A stretch of DNA of 38,722 nt from a virus (taxonomy: Duplodnaviria > Caudoviricetes), in IMG/VR virus record IMGVR_UViG_3300020043_002961, positions 1-38,722 of that record. One strand, 5' to 3'. The notes below the pieces were generated by a model that saw only the letters and a program-made list of their open reading frames with translations, had not been told where the DNA came from and did not search any database. Both the position numbers and the translations under genes were made by a program. Below are positions 1 through 35,564 of the stretch, one piece after another; the first letter of the stretch is position 1; each line of letters begins with the position of its first letter.

Positions 1-104
1 GTAGAGATAAAAAACACTCTACCCTGTAGGGTAGAGATGATCAGGAGATCAGAATTTATGAGCCGCCACACCCACCTGTACCAAAACAACGCTTGGAAAG
101 ACCT
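1..104. repeat. 104-bp perfect inverted repeat, partner at 1300..1403
   Basis: 1..104 is the exact reverse complement of 1300..1403. Confidence 0.95.
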
Positions 105-339
105 TCGGCGCAACCAATTGCAGAAGCAGCCGCTGTGCGAATTCTGTCTGGCTCGTGGAATCATCACCATGGCGACCGTGTGCGATCACATCGAACCGCA
201 TCGTGGGGATCTGGATAAGTTTTGGAATCCACTCAACCTTCAGAGCCTATGCAAGCAGTGTCACGATATAGATAAACAGAGAATAGAAAACGGACTTAAT
301 GAAAAAAAGATCATAGGGATTGATGGATGGCCAATTTAA
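58..339 (+). CDS. HNH endonuclease, HK97 gp74-like packaging-associated
   Basis: PLCEFC...VCDHIEPHRGD...FW...NLQSLCKQCH motif; AGGAG before ATG 58. Confidence 0.85.
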   Translation: MSRHTHLYQNNAWKDLRRNQLQKQPLCEFCLARGIITMATVCDHIEPHRGDLDKFWNPLNLQSLCKQCHDIDKQRIENGLNEKKIIGIDGWPI

Positions 340-1666: not shown

Positions 1667-4007
1667 GGCCAATTTTCAGCGCCGGAGGAACCAGAACTAA
1701 GCTCTTTCCGCTGCTTTTTCGTTTCTGCACGTTCATCTTGCGCAGAAAGAGTCCGGCTGTCTTTGTGTCACTGCTGGTTGGCCTGTCGATGCCGCACTCC
1801 ATAAGCATCTGGGTAGTAGTAACCCACCTCCAATTAAGCTGATCTGTCTTCCACTCCAGCCGGAATGAAAGGCGCTCGTCAATGGGGTCGATCTCAGTGT
1901 GGTTGTCGTTGTGCTCATTCAACTCTGCCACCTCGTCATTTGAAAGAAACCAGCTCATTCCTTTCAGGTACATCGACTCGTAAATCTCAGCCCAGAGCTG
2001 CTGCATATCAATTTTGTGGTCGCAGTCGATTGCTTGGCAGTTAATCGTCCAAAAGCGCCTGTTTCCTGTTTTGTCCTTCAGGAACTGATCATCGTTGACC
2101 GAGCCAAAGAATACAGTGCGCCGTGCAAACGTGCGCTCTTCGCGTCCGTACGACAGACGCATCACATCGCGGTCGCTGGTAATAAAAGCCTTCAGCGCTG
2201 CTATGTCAGCTTTGCGAAAGGTAGCGTCCAATTCGCCAAGCTCAACCATCCAGTAGCTGACGGCCCGTTTAACGCTGTCACGGTCATCAGGGCGCAAGCT
2301 CAGGCCGTCTTTGATGACATCCAAGCTCTTTGGAGCCAGTGATTTGAACCACTTCGTCTTGCCCATGTACTGCGCACCAGTGAACACTAGCACGCCAGCT
2401 GTAGATGCGCCGTTCGGCTCAAAAGCAGCTGCAATTGCAGACAGAAGCCACTTAGTCATCATGGCCTCTTTGAGCTGCTTGACCTTCTGATCCGAGTCTT
2501 GATTTGCGGCCGTGACTGTGTTGTGAAAATCACTTATTCGAGATTTTCCGTCCCACGGCTTGCTAGTCACCCACGTTGTCACGGGGTTGTAGATGTTGCT
2601 GTCTGCGATGTACCACGTATAAGCATCCAGATCCGCCGACGAGAGCTCAAATTTCTTGCAGCTTGACGTGAACCATGCGAATGCAGCCTCGGCCTCGTTG
2701 TCCATGCTGAAGCTCTGATTCGGGATGATGATTTCTCGCTTTTTCTTGATGATGTTATAGCGAATAGTCACATCGAGACGGTGCGCAGCTGCTGCAATGT
2801 TGTTGATGGTAGATAGTGGTTTACCTTTGCTGTTTATGTCAGGTAATGGGCTGTACCAATCAACAGAATCGCCAAAATTGTGCTCAATGATCTCGCCTGT
2901 ATCTGGATCTATCGTCTCAGTATTTCTTGCAGGAGCTGGAGCTGCAATAGCTCGCTGCTTCAATTCCGGAGCCTTGCGTGGTTGTAATTTACCCTTCTGA
3001 AATGCGCTGTGAAGCGTTGAGTCAATCTCTGATGTTTGAAGGCCGTTGATCTCTGCCGCTTCAGAAAGCGAGTTCCAGGCCAAGCTCTCGTTCAATTCTC
3101 CGCTGCCTACGAATTGAGCAATGCAAAACGCCTCTGAATTGAGTGTGTCGTTTCGCTGGCCAGAAGGCGCGTTTTGAACCTTCTGAATTGCGTTGTCAAG
3201 CGCCGACAAAACGTATTTACGATTCGGCGTGGCAGACTGAGCGTGAGATTCAGATTGTTGTGGTCGTACACGCTCCACAACAGGCTCAACAAACTGATGG
3301 GCCATCAGCATATCCATCGTCACCAATCCTGCGCCCTGTGGGCTCTCAAGCAGTTCTGATCGCCTATGTGGACGCTCCGAAGAGTTATCCCCCTTAGTTG
3401 ACATGGTTCCGTACAGCTTAACGATGCGCGATGCGTTTGATACCTTCACATCTACGTGCGCAATGTCAGTGCTGAAGTTTGCGTGAAGATATTTCAAAAA
3501 GCCTTTGACGGCAGCTGTGACTTCGCTGGTGTTTTCAAGATCGCACTTGTAAAGCAGGTGAAATCCGTTGCCTGAATCAGCAACAAAAGGCACTGGAAAT
3601 CCAGCATCGGCCATTTTGTCTCGAATCCGCATGGCCACGTCATACGACTCTTTTTTCTCATCATCGGTGCTTGCGCAGTCTGCTGGACGCTTTGGATCAA
3701 CGTCAACAAGAATAAGAGCTCTACGCTCGATGTCTTCATCCTTGGTTAAAAGATTTCGATCTGCATAGTCAATTGTTTTATTCTTGATGCGATCCAGAAG
3801 CTCAGGCTTTACTGGGTTAAGCGTGATGTAGATGGATGGCACATTACCATCCAGCTCTTCAACCGCCTTCAGGAATGATGTGCCACCACCCGCGCCAAAG
3901 AATCCTGAAACTGTTCCTTTTGATGTTTTCGGAACTCGAAGCTCAAAGACACCGTGATCTTTAAACAGCGACTTGTATGTTTTCGCAATGAGTGACTTCA
4001 TCATCAC
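1659..4007 (-). CDS. primase-helicase (AEP prim-pol-like, PriCT-like, VapE/VirE P-loop ATPase)
   Basis: LVDVD and DSGNGFH primase motifs, GQRNDTLN, Walker A GAQYMGKT, WMVELGE, GNRRFW. Confidence 0.85.
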   Translation of the reverse strand: MMMKSLIAKTYKSLFKDHGVFELRVPKTSKGTVSGFFGAGGGTSFLKAVEELDGNVPSIYITLNPVKPELLDRIKNKTIDYADRNLLTKDEDIERRALILVDVDPKRPADCASTDDEKKESYDVAMRIRDKMADAGFPVPFVADSGNGFHLLYKCDLENTSEVTAAVKGFLKYLHANFSTDIAHVDVKVSNASRIVKLYGTMSTKGDNSSERPHRRSELLESPQGAGLVTMDMLMAHQFVEPVVERVRPQQSESHAQSATPNRKYVLSALDNAIQKVQNAPSGQRNDTLNSEAFCIAQFVGSGELNESLAWNSLSEAAEINGLQTSEIDSTLHSAFQKGKLQPRKAPELKQRAIAAPAPARNTETIDPDTGEIIEHNFGDSVDWYSPLPDINSKGKPLSTINNIAAAAHRLDVTIRYNIIKKKREIIIPNQSFSMDNEAEAAFAWFTSSCKKFELSSADLDAYTWYIADSNIYNPVTTWVTSKPWDGKSRISDFHNTVTAANQDSDQKVKQLKEAMMTKWLLSAIAAAFEPNGASTAGVLVFTGAQYMGKTKWFKSLAPKSLDVIKDGLSLRPDDRDSVKRAVSYWMVELGELDATFRKADIAALKAFITSDRDVMRLSYGREERTFARRTVFFGSVNDDQFLKDKTGNRRFWTINCQAIDCDHKIDMQQLWAEIYESMYLKGMSWFLSNDEVAELNEHNDNHTEIDPIDERLSFRLEWKTDQLNWRWVTTTQMLMECGIDRPTSSDTKTAGLFLRKMNVQKRKSSGKSLVLVPPALKIGQF

Positions 4008-9867: not shown

Positions 9868-9977
9868 GGCAACCTCTTGGCGGAGGTTATTTGAGTAAGC
9901 CCTTGGGGCGTCTCTGCTGGTACTCACCAGTCCGCCAACGTGTGAAAACACGAGAGACGCGCCGAGGGCTTTTTTTT
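9868..9977 (+). ncRNA. C4/CI-like cloverleaf leader RNA ending in a terminator-like U-tract
   Basis: Nested stems with two loop-to-upstream complementarities; TGaTATAAT at 9844-9852. Confidence 0.55.
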
Positions 9978-9986
9978 GGAATAAAA

Positions 9987-10484
9987 ATGGCAAGACTACC
10001 TACACCTGCAATTGACAGGGTTATGTCAAGAATCGTCAGACTCCCAGAGTCTGGGTGCTGGATTTTTATGGGGGCGCTTAACGAGGCTGGATATGGAATT
10101 GTCGGCAATGGATCTAGATCGTCTGGCGTTGACAGGGCTCACCGAATTACATACAGACACTTCAAGGGAGAGATACCTAAAGGTTTGTTTGTATGTCATC
10201 ACTGCGACATTCCTAGCTGCTGCAATCCAGACCATTTGTTTATCGGAACAAATCATGAAAACGTAATTGATTGCGTGAGAAAAAAAAGGAACTCAAAGCC
10301 CCCAGTCAATTCACATATAAAAGGAGTTGTCCATGTCAAGCATAAGTTAAATGATGACATTGTTAAAGAAATACGAGCAATGAATGGTGTCATATCGCAT
10401 CGAATTTTGGCTAACAAATTTGGAGTTTGCAGGCAAACGGTAAGTGACATAGCTTCTGGAAAAAAATGGAAGCACGTCAAATGA
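9987..10484 (+). CDS. HNH homing endonuclease with C-terminal HTH
   Basis: GCWIF...GYG...AHR...VCHHCDIPSCCNPDHLFIGT..EN. Confidence 0.9.
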   Translation: MARLPTPAIDRVMSRIVRLPESGCWIFMGALNEAGYGIVGNGSRSSGVDRAHRITYRHFKGEIPKGLFVCHHCDIPSCCNPDHLFIGTNHENVIDCVRKKRNSKPPVNSHIKGVVHVKHKLNDDIVKEIRAMNGVISHRILANKFGVCRQTVSDIASGKKWKHVK

Positions 10485-13635: not shown

Positions 13636-13744
13636 ACAATCGTGGCCTTTCCCACCAGCAACAGGCGCAGTTCCTTGGACTGCCAAACAAATCAAAGCGT
13701 ACCAACAAGCGCAACGCGCACAACTGCCAGAGGCTCCGCTATGA
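13628..13744 (+). CDS. 38-aa hypothetical peptide (MSKQSWPFPP...EAPL)
   Basis: Tiles between neighbours with overlaps. Confidence 0.55.
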   Translation: MSKQSWPFPPATGAVPWTAKQIKAYQQAQRAQLPEAPL

Positions 13745-14295
13745 AACAAGCATTGCAATCATTGATTGATGAAATGGAATATGTTTTGTCGTGTATCAAT
13801 GAAGAAAAAATTCCTTTTGATGGTGATGATTTCCATGAAGCATTGCGATTAGGAAAAGAAGCACTAGCCAAGCAAGAGCAGGGTGAGCCTTTAGACACGC
13901 CATTGCCATGCGATGTAAAAGTTGGGCATGTGAATATTCGCAAAGGCGTTGCTCTACGCACTCTAGTAGCGCGTATGCAAGTGCTTTATGACATGGCACA
14001 ACCAAAGCAAGAGCAGGGCGAGCCTGTGGCGATAGTGGTTGGTGATGCGTGGAATTCGGCTATCCACTTTCTACCAGAGGGGCTGGATTTACCGATTGAC
14101 ACCCTGCTTTACACCACACCACAACAACGCAAGCCGCTGACGGATGAGCAAATTGAAGACCGTGTGTTGTCCGATGTAGTTGATTACTTGTCCAAACAAC
14201 ATGACTGGCTAACAAAAATTTCTGCAATCAACTTAGTTGCAGGTTTGTATGGTCGCGCTGACAAAGTTTTAGCCGCCCACGGCATTAAGGAGTAA
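13741..14295 (+). CDS. modular accessory protein 1 (linker-delimited modules)
   Basis: ATG 13741 in ATGA overlap; KQEQGEP twice, LYTTPQQRKPL. Confidence 0.75.
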   Translation: MKQALQSLIDEMEYVLSCINEEKIPFDGDDFHEALRLGKEALAKQEQGEPLDTPLPCDVKVGHVNIRKGVALRTLVARMQVLYDMAQPKQEQGEPVAIVVGDAWNSAIHFLPEGLDLPIDTLLYTTPQQRKPLTDEQIEDRVLSDVVDYLSKQHDWLTKISAINLVAGLYGRADKVLAAHGIKE

Positions 14296-14769
14296 GACAT
14301 GAGTAAAGAAGCAATGAAGCTGGCGCTTGAGGCGTTAAAAGCACCGTCACCTATGGGTAACTACAAAGCCATTACAGCCCTAGAAGAAGCACTAGCCAAG
14401 GAAGAGCCTGTGGCGATAGACATCACGATTGATGATGATGATGCGCTGTCTTACTTGCGCGATATGGTCGTTCAATCAGATGGTGACTTGACACCAATCC
14501 GTCTGTTGGTCGGTGAATGGCACTCTGGGTACGGCCTTTACATCGCTTCGGCAGACTACCCAGAGGAAGGCGCTGTCAAGATTGCTGATGTTGCCGCCAG
14601 CAAAACTGCAACACAGCCAGAGGAAGAGCAAGAGAAGGGATCAACTCCAGAAGACCCAATGGACACGCCATTACCTTGCGATGTGACAGTGGGCCACGTA
14701 AATATTCGCAAGGGCGTTGCTCTGCGTACTTTAGTGGCGCGTATGCAAGTGCTTTATGACATGGCGCAA
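13894..14769 (+). repeat. 108-bp duplicated coding module (13894..14001 and 14662..14769)
   Basis: 14 nt differences, 35/36 aa identical. Confidence 0.9.
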
Positions 14770-15447
14770 GCAACTCAATCGCAGGGCGAGCCTTTGAAGG
14801 TGCATGACGCGCAATGTCCAGCTTTGATAGGAGATCGCTGCGATTGTTCAGCAAGCCCCAAAGTCGTTGACAAAGCATGGGCTCAATTTTGTGGAGGAAT
14901 TGGTCTTGGTCCAGATGCACCATACCCAGGAATGATTGAAGCTTTTGAACTGCACTACGGGCAATCTTTCACAGACAAAGACTGGCGCGAAGAGACTAGC
15001 GTGTGGGCGGCTGCTTGGAAAGCTGCAAAGGCTACTAAACCAAAGCAAGAGCAGGGTGAGCCTGTGGCGAATGCGTCAACGTGGTTTGCATTGGTGATGA
15101 ATGCAGCGGCAGAGCTTGAGAACGCATCAATTTTCCTACGCGATGAAGACGCGAAGCGCGTTGCAATTAGTGGGGCGAAATACTACCGAGATCAGGCAAG
15201 CGCTCTCTACACCACACCACAACAACGCAAGCCGCTATGGATTGACCCAAACGACAAGACGCAAGAGAAGTTTCTGCCAAACATTGGTGAGCCTGTTATT
15301 TTTTGTTGCCGAGGAGAGACTTATATCGGATGGCACACTGGAGGTGGATTTCAAGATGCCTTTAACAGTGAAAACTATTTCAACACGTGGTCTTGCAGGT
15401 GGATGCCAATTCCATTCATCGAAGCCGCCCACTCAAGTAAGGATTAA
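14299..15447 (+). CDS. modular accessory protein 2 (linker-delimited modules; C-terminal DUF551-like segment)
   Basis: AAGGAG SD; shares linkers and a 36-aa module with the upstream gene. Confidence 0.75.
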   Translation: MSKEAMKLALEALKAPSPMGNYKAITALEEALAKEEPVAIDITIDDDDALSYLRDMVVQSDGDLTPIRLLVGEWHSGYGLYIASADYPEEGAVKIADVAASKTATQPEEEQEKGSTPEDPMDTPLPCDVTVGHVNIRKGVALRTLVARMQVLYDMAQATQSQGEPLKVHDAQCPALIGDRCDCSASPKVVDKAWAQFCGGIGLGPDAPYPGMIEAFELHYGQSFTDKDWREETSVWAAAWKAAKATKPKQEQGEPVANASTWFALVMNAAAELENASIFLRDEDAKRVAISGAKYYRDQASALYTTPQQRKPLWIDPNDKTQEKFLPNIGEPVIFCCRGETYIGWHTGGGFQDAFNSENYFNTWSCRWMPIPFIEAAHSSKD

Positions 15448-27388: not shown

Positions 27389-27702
27389 CTAACTGTTTGC
27401 TTGGCGCATTGATTCCAATGCCGCCGATTCCATTACACGAATGTCATCGAATGCAACCTTCCAGTCGTTCGATGGCAGGCCGAGATTATCAATCATGCGG
27501 AATAGGACGTTGTAGTCCAAACCTGTCGGCCCACCCATCCCGATTCGCCACTGAGTAGCGACCGCGATAAACAGGTCTACAGTTTGCCAGTTTTCGGGCC
27601 AAACTTCAACTGTTTGAGACGCCATAAGACCAGAAAGATCAAACCCGTTTCTGGGTTTGTCTTTCGGTTCCGGCGTATACAGCGACGAAGCGACCCGTCT
27701 TA
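27389..27702 (-). CDS. tail assembly chaperone extension (gpT/DUF1799-like), expressed by -1 frameshift
   Basis: VWPENW...TQWR.G..GLDY...ME.AAL; frame open up to the slippery site. Confidence 0.8.
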
Positions 27703-28092
27703 GTTTCCCAGACGGCCTTCAGTGATGGCGTTTCGGTAGCTGCTCATGATGGCCATGGCCGCAGCTGGAAGCTCGTCGCAGAGCTGAGCAACGGCACGGC
27801 GGCTGAATTCGATGTCCAAGTTCCAGCCGTCAGCGACCTTCATGATGTAGTCGGCATTGGTTTCTTTTGTCTTTTCAAGCGCGTCGGCCAATGAGAATTT
27901 TTGCTCTTCGTCGCCAGATCCAGTTGGAGCAACGCCTGCGTCTTCCATCAGGTTGTCAATCATTTTGCCGAATTCAGTGCGCGTGCGGTACACATAGCTC
28001 ATCTCAATAGAGCCTTCGCCGCCTTCAAGCATTGGAATGTTGACGATTGCTTTGAAGTTTTTGGGGCGTGAGCCAAGTACGATTTTTGCCAT
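27700..28092 (-). CDS. tail assembly chaperone (gpG-like)
   Basis: ATG 28092; ends GRLGN; between major tail protein and TMP. Confidence 0.85.
   Translation of the reverse strand: MAKIVLGSRPKNFKAIVNIPMLEGGEGSIEMSYVYRTRTEFGKMIDNLMEDAGVAPTGSGDEEQKFSLADALEKTKETNADYIMKVADGWNLDIEFSRRAVAQLCDELPAAAMAIMSSYRNAITEGRLGN
27703..27709 (-). other. -1 frameshift heptamer G GGA AAC (G/GT type)
   Basis: ctg gga aac taa at the end of the chaperone gene. Confidence 0.8.
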
Positions 28093-28202
28093 TTGGATGT
28101 TTCCTTTGGGTGTTGAAAATGCCAGCAGAAGAGCTGTCAAGCAGATCATTTGGTTCACCCATTGTATTCCAAAAACTTTTCAGTTGTGACATTCACAAAA
28201 AC

Positions 28203-30146: not shown

Positions 30147-30470
30147 TTACATCCCCATGTTGATGCGGAATGGGTCAAGCAACCACTTGACGCCAAACGG
30201 CAATTCGACAATCGCTGATCGCATTGGCTGCACGGATGCCTCGCGGTTCGCGTACAGATTTCCGACCTGCAAGAGAACCGCGCTCTTGACTGCGTCGTTC
30301 ATCACGAGCCCGTCCAAGTCGCTACCTGCGGATGATGCGTACAGAGTGCGGTTCAAGTACATTGAGACGGCCTTTTCACAGCCGTCCAGATAGATTTGAA
30401 TCAAAGTGTCTTCATCGTTGTGATCAACGCGAAGGTGCAATTTTGCTTGTGCTAGTGTGGTAATGCTCAT
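30147..30470 (-). CDS. head-tail connector (HK97 gp6-like)
   Basis: AKLHLRVD...ED.LI, AVLL.VG.LYANRE, LLDPFR. Confidence 0.92.
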   Translation of the reverse strand: MSITTLAQAKLHLRVDHNDEDTLIQIYLDGCEKAVSMYLNRTLYASSAGSDLDGLVMNDAVKSAVLLQVGNLYANREASVQPMRSAIVELPFGVKWLLDPFRINMGM

Positions 30471-31081
30471 GGTCTTTCTTCCCAGCGTGCTTTGAATACG
30501 CCCGTTGCTGTCTGATTTCCGATGTTTGAAATCGAGATGTAGTATGTGCCAGCGGGCATCCCGATAGGATCTGAACTGCCGCCAGACACGGAGTCACTTT
30601 TGTTGCCACTGTTAACCTGAAACACATCAAGCAAAGTTCCACCAGTCACGACGCCACCGTTATCCATGTCTACGTGAGTGACATACGATGAATCAATATC
30701 AGAAGTGTTGTTGACGCGCATTACTGGAATGTCGTTTACAAAAGGACTCGTCACTGTACTGCCAGATCGCAATTCAACCCTGACGCTACCGGCCCAGTTA
30801 TCAACAAGAAAGCTATTCAGGAAAACATCAACCGTGGTGATTGCTCGAATCGCAATGCTTGCGCCCTGCTCAATCGAATATTCGTGAAACGCAGCAAACT
30901 CGCGACCAGCGAAAAATCCAGTCTGGCCGGAATCGACACGAAGGCGAGCATACGGGCCGTCTCCATCAGTCATCAGAACCTTTGGCGGATAAGCCTCAAC
31001 GCGCTCGGCGTGCGTCCCATCCCCTCGGTCAACGAGGAGCTTCTTTAAGCTCTGCCAGAAAGGAAAGTTCGTGTTGCTCAT
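30467..31081 (-). CDS. hypothetical beta-rich protein, probably virion-associated
   Basis: RLRVDSGQTGFFAGREF...PAGTYY...WEE; in head operon. Confidence 0.65.
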   Translation of the reverse strand: MSNTNFPFWQSLKKLLVDRGDGTHAERVEAYPPKVLMTDGDGPYARLRVDSGQTGFFAGREFAAFHEYSIEQGASIAIRAITTVDVFLNSFLVDNWAGSVRVELRSGSTVTSPFVNDIPVMRVNNTSDIDSSYVTHVDMDNGGVVTGGTLLDVFQVNSGNKSDSVSGGSSDPIGMPAGTYYISISNIGNQTATGVFKARWEERP

Positions 31082-31097: not shown

Positions 31098-31685
31098 TCA
31101 AAGCTCAGGAATCCAACTCTTTTTGACATCCCATGGTCGCGGGTTGCCATGGAAGCAGATCACGCTTGCACCTGCTGGAGCGGTTTTCAAGGAGTGCGCC
31201 TTGTAGCTGAAGATCTTGTTCGGAAGCTCAAGCTGCCATCTTTTGCACGGCAAAACGTCACGCAGATAACCTTGATCACCCCAGTGCTCACGAGTGACAC
31301 AGCGCTTCATGTGTGCCTCTGGGTTCTCCATCCAGTCAGACCAAACCCTGTCTTTGTCGCGATTCTTGATCAACATCAGGCCGGACGCAGGTAAATGCGG
31401 CTTGTAGAAATCACTGAGCAGCGTCGTGTGCTCAAGCGACTCAAGCTGCTCGATACCACCCAAAACAACCGTGTCAAGGTCGAAAAACAGCAGGTCTTCC
31501 TCAATGTCGGGCCGGAAAAGCTCCATCTTCGCCCACCAGCCTGGCCAGTTGTGTTTGAGCCTTATGGTGTGCACACCCTCAACCTCAACATCCGAAAGGC
31601 AAACCAAATCTGGAACCTGCCGCGCAAGCCACTGTACGTGCTTCGGCCCGTACTCTTTTCCGCTTCTCAAAACGCAAATTCTCAC
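31098..31685 (-). CDS. GT-A fold glycosyltransferase (GT8-like)
   Basis: GWWAKMELF, FFDLDTVV (DxD), SGLM, WGDQGYL, ICFHGNPRPW. Confidence 0.8.
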   Translation of the reverse strand: MRICVLRSGKEYGPKHVQWLARQVPDLVCLSDVEVEGVHTIRLKHNWPGWWAKMELFRPDIEEDLLFFDLDTVVLGGIEQLESLEHTTLLSDFYKPHLPASGLMLIKNRDKDRVWSDWMENPEAHMKRCVTREHWGDQGYLRDVLPCKRWQLELPNKIFSYKAHSLKTAPAGASVICFHGNPRPWDVKKSWIPEL

Positions 31686-32275
31686 AGCAGATCCTCAAGA
31701 TTTTTTCTCGGAAACATATCAAGCGCCGTCACTCGACTTGCATTGATGATTTCAGCGTCAGGATGGTCATCTCTGAGCCGTTTAAACAGCGCAGGCCACC
31801 TGTCTATCTGCTTCGCATTTGCGAGCCCTCTGGGGTGGTTTCCGTGCCAGTGAGCCTTGCCGTCTGTGTGCTGACAATCAAACCCAAGCATGATCACGCG
31901 CTCTGCATCACCGAATAGCGCCAAAGACACTCCGCCAGCGCCAGAATTGCCGTAGGCGTTGAATTTCGCAGGATTCAGGTACGTCGTCATGTACTTCGCT
32001 GGCAGATTGTTCGTGCAGAACCTCTGGCCAACGAAGTCACGATTCACTTCATCAAGATGCAACGACCACCATGGCTCATCAAGAGCAAACAGAGCGTCAG
32101 CCCAAGGTGCAGCTCTGAATGTGGTGTTGGCAACGATTACTGCTTTTTGGCCTTGCGTCCAGTCTTGCTGGCTTTCTTCTCTGGCTCGCCAGTCTCTGAC
32201 TCGCTCGATGTCTCCTCTTGTGAGGCTTGGCCCACTGGCAAGGACGACGACTGTGCCTCCTCGCCATCTTCCACT
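31682..32275 (-). CDS. Maf/DUF115 (MptE-like, sialyltransferase-fold) transferase domain lacking its own start; predicted -1 frameshift fusion
   Basis: TVVVLASGPSL, VIVAN, ADALFALD..WW, GNSG, VIMLGFD, HWHG.H, IINAS..TAL..F; no ATG/GTG/TTG upstream of these motifs. Confidence 0.7.
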   Translation of the reverse strand, partial: SGRWRGGTVVVLASGPSLTRGDIERVRDWRAREESQQDWTQGQKAVIVANTTFRAAPWADALFALDEPWWSLHLDEVNRDFVGQRFCTNNLPAKYMTTYLNPAKFNAYGNSGAGGVSLALFGDAERVIMLGFDCQHTDGKAHWHGNHPRGLANAKQIDRWPALFKRLRDDHPDAEIINASRVTALDMFPRKNLEDLL

Positions 32276-32436
32276 AAAGGGCGATCCATTGCCTCCTTGG
32301 TTTCCATGCGCACAGCTTCTCCGCGTTCAATGAAAAACTTGGCCAATGAGTCATTTACTTCAACAGGCACGCCAGCTGGGAGACGGCCGTAGCCAACAGC
32401 CATGATTGGCTTTTTCGAGGTGATAACGATTTTCAT
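32137..32436 (-). CDS. small capsid-adjacent protein (99 aa) with acidic then basic low-complexity tail
   Basis: Overlaps HNH stop; position after the capsid gene. Confidence 0.75.
   Translation of the reverse strand: MKIVITSKKPIMAVGYGRLPAGVPVEVNDSLAKFFIERGEAVRMETKEAMDRPLVEDGEEAQSSSLPVGQASQEETSSESETGEPEKKASKTGRKAKKQ
32236..32298 (-). other. predicted -1 programmed ribosomal frameshift signal
   Basis: AAGGAGG (32298-32292), 10 nt, C CCT TTA (32281-32275), 8 nt, stem TGGCGAGGA/TCCTTGCCA. Confidence 0.75.
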
Positions 32437-33113
32437 AGGAGATGCTCCAATCTTGCGCTTTTGCGCTGGTTTTCTTCAGCCCACAAGGGACGAAGGTTTG
32501 TAAAGTGGTTAAGTCGGATTATGTCATCTTCACAAGCTGCTGTCGCTAGTGGAATGATGTGGTCAATGTGCCACAGGTTTCTGTTTTGCCACGTCATGCC
32601 TTCTTGAAATTGACGCTCAATGTGCAGGTGAAACTCTTCCCAAGTGCAACCGATCATTTCTGATGTTGATGAGCCTTTTCTTAGACCAATCCCTTTCATG
32701 GCTAGGCGCACTCTGTGAGATATTTTTCCTTTCAAGTAATAAATATCATCGCTCAACCTTCTCAATTTGCATCTTTCAACAGCCTTTGCGTAATATTTTT
32801 TCCTGTTTAATGACCATTGCTTTTCTTGGTTTGCTCTTACCTTTTCTTTATTTTTTATAGACCACAGCCTGTCTCGTCTTCTTATTTCGTCTATGTTTTC
32901 TATTCTGTACTGTCTTTTTTTCTTGATCAGTAGGTCTCTGTTTTTTATGTTGTACTCAGATATGTACTTGGCAATCTTGCCTCTATTTTTATCTCGGTAA
33001 TCTTTGTCGCATTCCTTACACTTGGACTGCAATCCATCCTTGCTTCTGCTCGATTTGGCAAACTCAAACAATGACTTTTCAGTTGAGCATTTATTGCAAA
33101 ATTTGACTTCCAT
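32433..33113 (-). CDS. HNH-type endonuclease with N-terminal Zn finger, inserted in the head operon
   Basis: C..C..EK...F...DGL...CK.C; WHIDHIIPL...NHFTNLRPLW..EN; AT-rich. Confidence 0.85.
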   Translation of the reverse strand: MEVKFCNKCSTEKSLFEFAKSSRSKDGLQSKCKECDKDYRDKNRGKIAKYISEYNIKNRDLLIKKKRQYRIENIDEIRRRDRLWSIKNKEKVRANQEKQWSLNRKKYYAKAVERCKLRRLSDDIYYLKGKISHRVRLAMKGIGLRKGSSTSEMIGCTWEEFHLHIERQFQEGMTWQNRNLWHIDHIIPLATAACEDDIIRLNHFTNLRPLWAEENQRKSARLEHLL

Positions 33114-33195: not shown

Positions 33196-34344
33196 TTAAG
33201 CTGAATAGTCACCGTACAAAATGCCAGCAGGACGCTCTGTGCCAAGGCCCAAACGCTCTTCTGCGCGAATTGTAATCAAATTTTTGGTAAAATCTTCGTT
33301 AATGTAACCCATTTCAATTACAGCGCCGCTGCGATTGTAAAGGATTGCAGAGGTGCGCAATGCGCCGATCAGGAACTTGCCAGCTGCCATGTGATTCGAC
33401 AGAATCACGTTGACGCCGAATGGGTTCATGCCAGCAGCCATGCCAGGCATACCGTATAGGTATTCACCCTTACCACCGGTGTAGGTTTCGCGAGTGCGCT
33501 CCATTGCGCCCCAGTCGGCTGGGTTCACGATCACTGTGTCAGGAGCGTTACCAGTTGCCCACAAGGCGTACTTGGCGCGAGAGATTGCATCAACCAACAA
33601 GTCGTCGCTAGATGCGCTATAGGCAGTGAAGTTGCCGCTGTCGGTCAAGCCAGACAAGTTGGGGCTAGTGCCGTTGCCGTTGAGCAACTGAGCGTCGATG
33701 CGCTGGGCCAAGCCGTCACGCAAGCGAGACTCAATGTAAGCCACAACAGCAGGAGCGTCTGCCAGCAACTGATTGCTGATTTTAATCCAGTGAGCAACAG
33801 TCGTGATTGGCACGTTGTATTGCTCAAAGGTTGCATCAGATTCAGCTTTGGACGCGCCTTGAGACACTTCGGCAGCAGAGTTTGTCCAGCTGGCTTCACG
33901 CAAAGCGTTGACCATGTTGGTAGACACAGCGATGCTAGTCAAAGCAGCGCGGATGCTGGTTGGCAAGAAGTTGCCAGGGATGATGCCAGGCTTTTGGTCT
34001 GGGAACACGGTTGTCGAACCAGATGTGACAGTGTTCTTGACTTCAAAGCGAGCGCGTTGAGTGTTGCCAGTCACGAGCTGTTTGAATTGCTCAGACTTAA
34101 CGAACTCTTCAGCAGCAGACAAAGGCTTGGCTTCAACTTGAGCGGCAGCAGTTTGCTTTTGAGCCAACTCAACCATTTGTGCAGACAAAGATTTGAACTG
34201 CTCAGACAGTTCTTTCACTTCGCCCTTAACTTCGGTGTCAACGCCACCTTTTTCTTTGAGCTGGCCTTCGAATTTCTCGATTGCAGCTTGCAATTTCACT
34301 TCTTGCTTGGCCAAGCCAGCTTCGATGATGTCTTTCAGTTCCAT
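33196..34344 (-). CDS. major capsid protein, HK97 fold
   Basis: N-terminal delta coiled coil; TVAHWIKIS.QLLADAP, LNGNG..PNL.G, FTKNLITIRAEERL. Confidence 0.96.
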   Translation of the reverse strand: MELKDIIEAGLAKQEVKLQAAIEKFEGQLKEKGGVDTEVKGEVKELSEQFKSLSAQMVELAQKQTAAAQVEAKPLSAAEEFVKSEQFKQLVTGNTQRARFEVKNTVTSGSTTVFPDQKPGIIPGNFLPTSIRAALTSIAVSTNMVNALREASWTNSAAEVSQGASKAESDATFEQYNVPITTVAHWIKISNQLLADAPAVVAYIESRLRDGLAQRIDAQLLNGNGTSPNLSGLTDSGNFTAYSASSDDLLVDAISRAKYALWATGNAPDTVIVNPADWGAMERTRETYTGGKGEYLYGMPGMAAGMNPFGVNVILSNHMAAGKFLIGALRTSAILYNRSGAVIEMGYINEDFTKNLITIRAEERLGLGTERPAGILYGDYSA

Positions 34345-35033: not shown

Positions 35034-35564
35034 TCAGTGTAACAACAGCAACATTTCGTTGCGCTTTCTTTTTGCTCGTCGGATCACCTCATCGGCCAGT
35101 AATGGCCACGGTTGCCACTCTAGATCCTGCCGCTGATTTCCACCTTGAGCGATGTATACGGGCTGAGGCTTCGTGCCTGATGCTGAGAATGTGTCGGACG
35201 CCTCGGATGCAGACAGCTCTCCATCGACGGGCACATCTCCAACAGATGAAAAATTATCCTTTCCAGCTTCGGTTGCATTCAGTTCGCCAGACAGGAACGC
35301 GACGCCAGAAGCTGAAATCGAATCCTCGCCAGTCTCAATTGCTTCGAGCGATCCCTGCGCCGTAATATCGCCAGCCGCGTAAAACGTGTCGGAGCCCTCG
35401 GTGGCAGAAAGTACACCAGAGGCGGGTAGCGCGAAGTATATTGGGGAGTCAAATACATCAACGCCCTCTGCCTTTTGGTGGAAAAAGTAGTACCAATTGG
35501 CCTGAACTATGCCACCAAGGGAGGAGCCATCGCCCTCCAGTGCCGACATGGTTCCTGTTGTCAT
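35034..35564 (-). CDS. repeat-containing acidic protein, possible head fiber
   Basis: Four ~21-aa repeats G.L.A.E..D.F...G. Confidence 0.6.
   Translation of the reverse strand: MTTGTMSALEGDGSSLGGIVQANWYYFFHQKAEGVDVFDSPIYFALPASGVLSATEGSDTFYAAGDITAQGSLEAIETGEDSISASGVAFLSGELNATEAGKDNFSSVGDVPVDGELSASEASDTFSASGTKPQPVYIAQGGNQRQDLEWQPWPLLADEVIRRAKRKRNEMLLLLH

Follow-up and report, generated by a model that had tools for sequence, protein, structure and literature searches.

The Maf-like domain encoded behind the capsid gene of this phage is very probably produced by ribosomal −1 frameshifting. It has no start codon and overlaps a small gene of the capsid region, so that it is most likely made only when the ribosome slips back by one base. 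The fuller reading, in which programmed slippage at a C_CCT proline codon yields a minor 251-aa fusion predicted to glycosylate virion proteins, seems likely to us; virion glycosylation, taken by itself as the job of the fusion, we consider about evenly balanced. The first-pass annotation had proposed such a −1 fusion, and it is supported by the overlap of the two frames, by a tetramer and a stem conserved in the family, and by natural in-frame fusions.

The window, that is the whole stretch of 38,722 bases of IMGVR_UViG_3300020043_002961 (estimated completeness 57%), carries on its minus strand a siphophage head-tail operon. This begins with terminase, portal, protease, HK97-type capsid, an endonuclease VII-like gene and the 99-aa gene, and continues with the start-less domain, a phrog_1962 glycosyltransferase, one unknown gene, head-tail connectors and tail genes (Table 1). 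The small gene had been described as capsid-adjacent, which is true of the relatives, where the two genes are neighbours, but not of the window genome, where the endonuclease gene (32433–33113) intervenes and its stop overlaps the ATG of the 99-aa gene. Close relatives come mainly from freshwater runs, and their contigs in all four runs diverge at position 32437, implying that many relatives lack the endonuclease insertion. RNA runs contain only 4–16% of the sequence words. Three other HNH-like endonuclease genes are present in the window (37–339, 381–1025 and 9891–10484). A 176-aa gene lies between the portal region and the protease (35034–35564), a 204-aa phrog_13935 gene lies downstream of both transferases (30467–31081), and two ORFs of 217 and 382 aa at 13642–15447 have no PHROG match.

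Table 1. Features of the cassette, numbered by position in the window.
Feature	Position	Strand	Remarks
HK97-type major capsid gene, upstream of the cassette	33196..34344	-	Same position in 85/88 relatives
Endonuclease VII/HNH-like gene, between capsid and small gene	32433..33113	-	phrog_1035
0-frame small gene, 99 aa	32137..32436	-	L9-N-terminal-like domain (residues 1-53) and Ser/Glu/Lys-rich low-complexity tail
N-terminal domain common to both predicted products, ending at shift-site Pro53	32278..32436	-	Also heads natural in-frame fusions
Start-less −1 frame domain, 198 aa, Maf-like fold	31682..32278	-	phrog_4603 / P1 PmgO family, E 9e-47
126-aa TTG ORF as called by gene callers	31682..32062	-	Lacks first three strands of the fold; database entries truncated
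Second glycosyltransferase-like gene, next downstream, overlapping the domain's stop	31098..31685	-	phrog_1962, E 4.5e-65
SD-like AAGGAGG, 10 nt before the slippery site	32292..32298	-	Kept in window lineage, not family-wide
C_CCT tetramer, core of predicted shift site, family-conserved	32278..32281	-	70/88 overlap, 0/33 stand-alone clusters
C_CCT_TTA heptamer, lineage-specific extension	32275..32281	-	Listed as shift-prone (PMC4066793)
Stem-loop, predicted stimulatory	32236..32266	-	Lower part matches the family's 11-bp stem, base eroded in window genome
Possible second stem (pseudoknot), hairpin loop with downstream sequence	32210..32251	-	Weak, bulged in window genome

The 126-aa ORF had been taken for the tail of a longer open frame, and indeed the domain frame (31682–32326, minus strand) runs open over 214 codons. 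No ATG, GTG or TTG lies between the stop upstream and the conserved ASGPS motif, as had been noted, and no CTG, ATT, ATC or ATA either; the sole near-cognate codon is an ACG right after the stop, which is missing in the close relatives L001 and L002. The 99-aa ORF (32137–32436) overlaps this frame, and the relation between the two requires a −1 shift, with a predicted fusion of 251 aa. Reading along the minus strand, AAGGAGG (32298–32292) is followed after 10 nt by an in-phase C CCT TTA (32281–32275) and after a further 8 nt by a stem (32266–32258 with 32244–32236), each element at the spacing originally described. The hairpin after the heptamer has a predicted energy of −18 kcal/mol (z −2.96), equalled by none of 200 shuffles. 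As a chance control, 28 in-phase X_XXY_YYZ heptamers occur in the 9,602 codons of 31 window ORFs; of these, C_CCT_TTA alone comes with an SD-like sequence, and it combines this with a hairpin at least as stable as −15 kcal/mol and a −1 frame that stays open over 199 codons. The heptamer is found in all 15 loci of the window's cluster and the AAGGAGG-type internal SD in 14 of 15 close loci. Contigs from four runs, each of a different study, carry substitutions and not a single inserted or deleted letter, and pieces from X3 and X4 span the site.

To place this arrangement in its family, 267 loci were gathered in addition to the window, from partly overlapping sets of 18 and 80 viral rows, 80 genome rows, 80 metagenome rows and 10 annotated phage regions. 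Usable loci numbered 245 of 268, the other 23 being cut upstream or having a motif that could not be located. They form 146 clusters at 80% identity, nine of which were dropped after the script had mislocated the motif, leaving 137. A 0-frame ORF crosses the ASGPS motif in 92 of the 137; within these overlap clusters the domain frame has no ATG, GTG or TTG in 80 and a candidate in-frame start in 12. The remaining 45 clusters have no overlap, and a start codon is present in every one. Conservation spans clusters that are 25–64% identical to the window protein. The phrog_10 major head protein lies upstream in 85 of the 88 overlap clusters whose upstream gene could be cut out, and for the stand-alone clusters (n = 42) no major-head family appears among the 25 of 69 neighbour families listed. 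The small domain lies upstream in the 0 frame in 88 of 92 overlap clusters, 66 of which were used to build its profile. Genes 3′ of the cassette include head-tail adaptors (31 of 85), a second phrog_4603 copy (four), phrog_1962 (three) and two methyltransferase families (three each).

Among isolated phages, D3, Psp6 and S20 are examples of the overlap, and the gene stands alone in P1, PAJU2, Eowyn, CcrSC and IME392; the PAJU2 homologue is called a 'structural protein', by annotation only. The domain has matches in about 1,100 stored viral stretches, and in two thirds of the sampled clusters the gene is annotated as truncated or missed. Homologous genes with candidate starts are unannotated in GenBank at L023 (JK004, 2501–3034) and L026 (phiNP, 2501–3040).

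The signal that the family shares is a tetramer. The conserved Trp codon of the domain, which 88 of the 92 overlap clusters and 33 of the 45 stand-alone ones possess, served as the alignment anchor, and exactly 14 nt before it an in-phase C_CCN is present in 70 of 88 overlap clusters against 0 of 33 stand-alone clusters. For any Z_ZZN at that site the counts are 74/88 and 3/33, the four extra overlap clusters having A_AAA (twice), A_AAG and G_GGC. The third codon base of the tetramer is T in 48 clusters, C in 15, A in 5 and G in 2 (C_CCY in 63 of 70), compared with a proline usage in the same genes of 235 CCG, 90 CCC, 83 CCA and 78 CCT (p 6e-22 with clusters treated as independent; as they share descent, such p-values overstate that independence). 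The bias agrees with the rule for E. coli that C_CCU and C_CCC shift equally and C_CCA or C_CCG barely at all (PMC4066793). The distance from tetramer to ASGPS varies, with 39 short-loop and 31 long-loop clusters, and because the loop has two lengths the spacing of the tetramer is fixed to the stem rather than to the protein motif. Codons on both sides of the tetramer are free to vary, and residues of the −1 frame are unconserved upstream of the shift-site proline. A −1 frame stop stands immediately before CCC in three clusters and one codon earlier in eight, which confines the shift to the CCC codon or just after it. Past the site the 0-frame tail runs for 23–38 codons in 69 of 70 clusters, with the downstream frame intact.

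The Shine-Dalgarno element and the full heptamer are not part of this family signal. Of 70 clusters, 22 have a heptamer that puts the proline codon in the P site and nine have one that puts it in the A site; 21–27% of the 70 have a strong SD-like 8-mer at a distance of 8–12 nt, and a comparable peak is seen 34–38 nt upstream. On these figures we rejected both as a signal of the family. Since the internal SD is lineage-specific, the dnaX/IS911-type design assigned to this site by the first-pass annotation describes the window phage and not the family: lack of a start and the stem are conserved in homologues, the heptamer and SD are not, and the tetramer is conserved in their stead. D3-like loci have C_CCA_AAG in 29 of 29. 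A rank test of spacer length against presence of a heptamer gave p 0.07; a spacer cut at 8 nt gave 10/15 versus 10/41 (p 0.005), a lead only, the cut having been chosen afterwards.

Among the 88 anchored overlap clusters, 18 have no C_CCN at 14 nt. Seven loci, mostly alphaproteobacterial (L150, L152, L156, L167, L168, L171 and L025), have their C_CCT farther 5′, at 17–35 nt from the last Trp codon, with predicted hairpins that differ, and this is probably a variant signal. The L040:2501 region, L138, L143 and L147 have tetramers or heptamers with U_UUU, A_AAG or A_AAA in place of C_CCY, at the same or near spacing, and L141, L169 and L139 have no clear site.

Downstream of the tetramer, an 11-bp stem starting 5 nt after it (in the window, 8 nt after the heptamer) forms the longest conserved helix. 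Its cells are 86% paired, 20 of them changed on both sides, and this pairing is above 500 of 500 shuffles and every slid control; the number of pairs with two-sided change does not exceed the shuffles (344/500), and relatedness inflates these stem tests. Minimum-energy folding produces the stem in 56 of 70 overlap loci and in 3 of 31 stand-alone loci, although stand-alone loci, too, are more stable than their synonymous shuffles (median z −1.4; overlap loci −1.8). A second stem, which would make an H-type pseudoknot, has 77.6% of cells paired with few two-sided changes, a figure confounded by the two-frame protein constraint, and longer complementary runs than stand-alone genes, a comparison confounded by protein sequence. 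The 11-bp stem is possibly part of a pseudoknot.

We envisage that the ribosome would pause at this stem, or perhaps pseudoknot, beginning about 5 nt past the A-site codon, and that tRNA-Pro would re-pair from CCU to CCC. In the heptamer lineages (C_CCU_UUA in the window, C_CCA_AAG in D3) two tRNAs may slip one codon later; the stem base there would be shorter, with added help from the SD in the window phage. The expected products are a 99-aa protein in abundance and, as the minor form, an enzyme fusion of 251 aa. In E. coli, tetramers follow the hierarchy A_AAG > U_UUY > C_CCY > A_AAA and need a strong stimulator, and the best six with a strong pseudoknot gave 0.26–5.6% shifting (PMC4066793). 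Tetramers shift at a few percent at most, so the yield of fusion would be low. C_CCU_UUA is among the shift-prone heptamers of that study, and C_CCA_AAG reached 54% with the IS3 pseudoknot (PMC4066793). The phage site resembles IS3 elements in its A-site tetramer, in a stimulator from 5 nt downstream, which is the spacer length of IS3 (PMC4066793), and in a predicted long product that shares the N-terminus of the short one; it differs in using C_CCY instead of A_AAG, in its place in a head operon and in having only a possible pseudoknot. The likeness to dnaX and IS911 lies in the SD 10 nt upstream, heptamer and stem of the window genome; the SD and heptamer are not family-conserved, and the shifted product of dnaX itself is the shorter one.

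Natural in-frame fusions, suggested early on as a check, do exist, with at least seven clear cases that join these two domains. Among 278 proteins scanned (270 with the domain), seven scored ≥28 bits, five 15–20 bits and four lower. In the in-frame fusions P0029 and P0040, each 244 aa long, residues 1–55 share 33% identity with the 99-aa protein. In a quick, midpoint-rooted FastTree of 147 rows, from which no order of events is claimed, the 12 fused rows are scattered among overlap lineages and need seven changes, at least three of them forced by well-supported branches. The two domains thus work as one polypeptide in nature. The DNA of P0029 was not found in viral contigs, so the evidence for the fusions is at the protein level only, for the most part from single Logan or metagenome entries, and P0029 and P0040 are each a single-member cluster; a separate, weak search with the small-domain profile returned one protein and no fusion. 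The Maf-like domain is also found fused at its C-terminus to enzyme-like domains of 180–340 aa (P0136, P0269, P0191, P0172, P0247, P0143, P0154, P0139, P0258 and P0176), in some cases together with the small N-terminal domain.

What the fusion does is less certain than how it is made. The domain matches positions 2–173 of the 178 in the phrog_4603 profile (E 9e-47) and is 35% identical to PmgO of phage P1. The 198-aa model (pLDDT 95) finds its best fold match in the glycosyltransferase Maf (PDB 5mu5; Maf_flag10, GT-A variant fold; Z 16.2, rmsd 3.0, 175 residues aligned, Foldseek E 1.3e-4), followed by MptE/HPPK, a pterin pyrophosphokinase (Z 11.5), SteA (Z 10.7) and Cst-I (Z 10.1), in keeping with the Maf/sialyltransferase-like fold that had been suggested. 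A common catalytic-domain fold is shared with Maf and the GT42 enzymes Cst-I and Cst-II; identity is 13–15%, and the phage protein corresponds only to the core domain (residues 265–510 of 5mu5) and not to the full multi-domain architecture of about 630 aa. Maf proteins transfer nonulosonic acids to serine and threonine of flagellin, using D324, E415 and a conserved serine (bioRxiv 2020.06.03.131540); the invariant D67 and D134 and near-invariant S112 of the phage domain are candidate equivalents of these residues. Neither the Maf-like nor the small domain gave a significant hit in profile searches of solved structures, and NCBIfam had no match for the five proteins tried.

The shared 53-aa domain (model pLDDT 78) has L9 N-terminal domains as nearly all of its top Foldseek matches, with a best E of only 0.03. 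DUF7210 matches 19 of 66 family members, the window's own protein not among them. Pro53 is invariant by construction, and Gly39 is present in at least 90%. The 0-frame tails, of 23–61 residues, are rich in A, K, S, P, R, G and T, a composition that is partly due to the overlapping frame.

We suggest that the L9-N-like domain would direct both products to the head or neck and that the frameshift would set a low ratio of enzyme to structural protein. By analogy with Maf, the enzyme may transfer a nucleotide-activated sugar, CMP-nonulosonate or Kdo, to serine or threonine, and one candidate acceptor is the tail of the short product; sugar-transferase activity and acceptor are both what we infer. 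Rather doubtfully, we extend this to a scheme in which recoding at C_CCY with a pseudoknot sets the ratio of a capsid-binding protein with and without its Maf-like glycosyltransferase, leaving the heads of proteobacterial phages such as D3 coated with a sialic-acid-like sugar on the Ser/Thr tail; this would be a widespread kind of recoding that has gone unrecognised. Ribosomal protein L9 curbs frameshifting. That the L9-like domain might tune its own frameshift on the ribosome is speculative and very improbable.

A serious contender, if not the favoured reading, accepts the frameshift and gives the enzyme another role: it may act on the host surface or a host protein, or be pyrophosphokinase-like or an inactive structural domain. 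The fold also matches MptE/HPPK and thiamine pyrophosphokinases, and 38 of 66 relatives match the Pfam MptE-like family (PF01973) at E 0.01 or better, the window protein itself falling short of the gathering score (13.7 bits versus 34.6). Furthermore, pmgO of P1 is a stand-alone gene outside the head genes and is non-essential (PMC10695390). Against this reading stand the major capsid gene that precedes the cassette in 85 of 88 loci, the protein O-glycosyltransferase as best fold match, and the other glycosyl- and methyltransferases among the neighbours.

Independent translation of the domain, whether from a non-canonical or downstream start (such as the TTG at 32062) or by reinitiation after the stop of the 99-aa gene, is improbable. 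Gene callers do report such ORFs, and the 12 overlap clusters with a candidate start upstream of the motif include four with an SD-like context of −5.7 to −8.2 kcal/mol. However, a downstream start would delete the ASGPS strand, which is invariant, and the two strands after it from the high-confidence (pLDDT 95) model, no start is available in the other 80 clusters, and the fixed spacing between tetramer and stem would go unexplained. The D3 lineage has a GTG or TTG with SD-like context 20–22 codons upstream: at this position 20 of the 29 loci have TTG, 6 have GTG and 3 have neither, whereas C_CCA_AAG is kept in all 29.

Transcriptional slippage, with a base added in the C/T run, or a +2 event would give a nearly identical fusion, and context-dependent slippage on short runs is known (PMC5009743). 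We think either hardly likely here, since the run is merely 3–4 C, the conserved structure is found 3′ of the site, spaced as for ribosome entry, and the motif keeps strictly to the phase of the 0 frame. A pseudogene born of a one-base deletion in a once-fused gene, for which the natural in-frame fusions provide a precedent, or a sequencing or assembly error can be virtually discounted, given the four independent samples without the indel that had been raised as a possible artefact and the same break, with an intact downstream frame, in 92 clusters.

We take the domain, then, to be reached by −1 frameshifting, and several known systems are close to it. The window domain belongs to the same protein family (phrog_4603) as P1 PmgO, D3 orf6.5/orf7 and PAJU2 ORF10. 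The P1 and PAJU2 genes have their own start, unlike D3, which has the same overlap; its orf7 carries the annotation of a separate, truncated gene, without a frameshift. In T7 gene 10 and the Listeria phages PSA, A118 and A500, recoding likewise adds a C-terminal domain to a protein of the virion region (PMC5009743); the Listeria cases quoted there are +1 shifts at CCC, and in the present family a small accessory protein is the carrier, with a transferase fold as the addition. Phage-encoded glycosyltransferases decorate the virion of mycobacteriophage Che8 (Freeman 2023, cited in PMC11256854), with other hosts and genes and with no mention of a frameshift in the accessible text of PMC11256854. 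Phage frameshifts and phage glycosyltransferases are thus each known already, and no paper on their junction was found in the literature searched, the accessible texts of PMC5009743 and PMC3711429 included. Passages of the main text and two supplementary files of the GeneTack paper hold no DUF115, MAF_flag10 or capsid entry.

If this is correct, tail chaperones and capsid or tail extensions would be joined by a third common class of phage frameshift, one that makes natural use of the C_CCY tetramer. It would be a recoding event that current genome annotation misses across dozens of distant relatives, including Pseudomonas phage D3, in which the predicted frameshift is directly testable. Should the virion prove to be glycosylated, phage glycan coats would reach beyond mycobacteriophages to many proteobacterial phages, with relevance for phage therapy, adsorption and survival in water.

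The lambda-like G/GT tail chaperones also make a short abundant and a long minor product from one phage morphogenesis gene; gene, position and motif are different, and the extension in the window phage is enzyme-like. The 99-aa gene has neither chaperone homology nor a position before the tape measure gene; the chaperone pair of the window is found at another place (27389–28158). There, a G_GGA_AAC (27709–27703, minus strand) at the end of the tail assembly chaperone gene (27700–28158) opens a 106-codon −1 frame that runs into a DUF1799 ORF, a classic site for the G/GT frameshift. With the site at 27709 and the C_CCT site together, the window genome likely has two programmed −1 sites.
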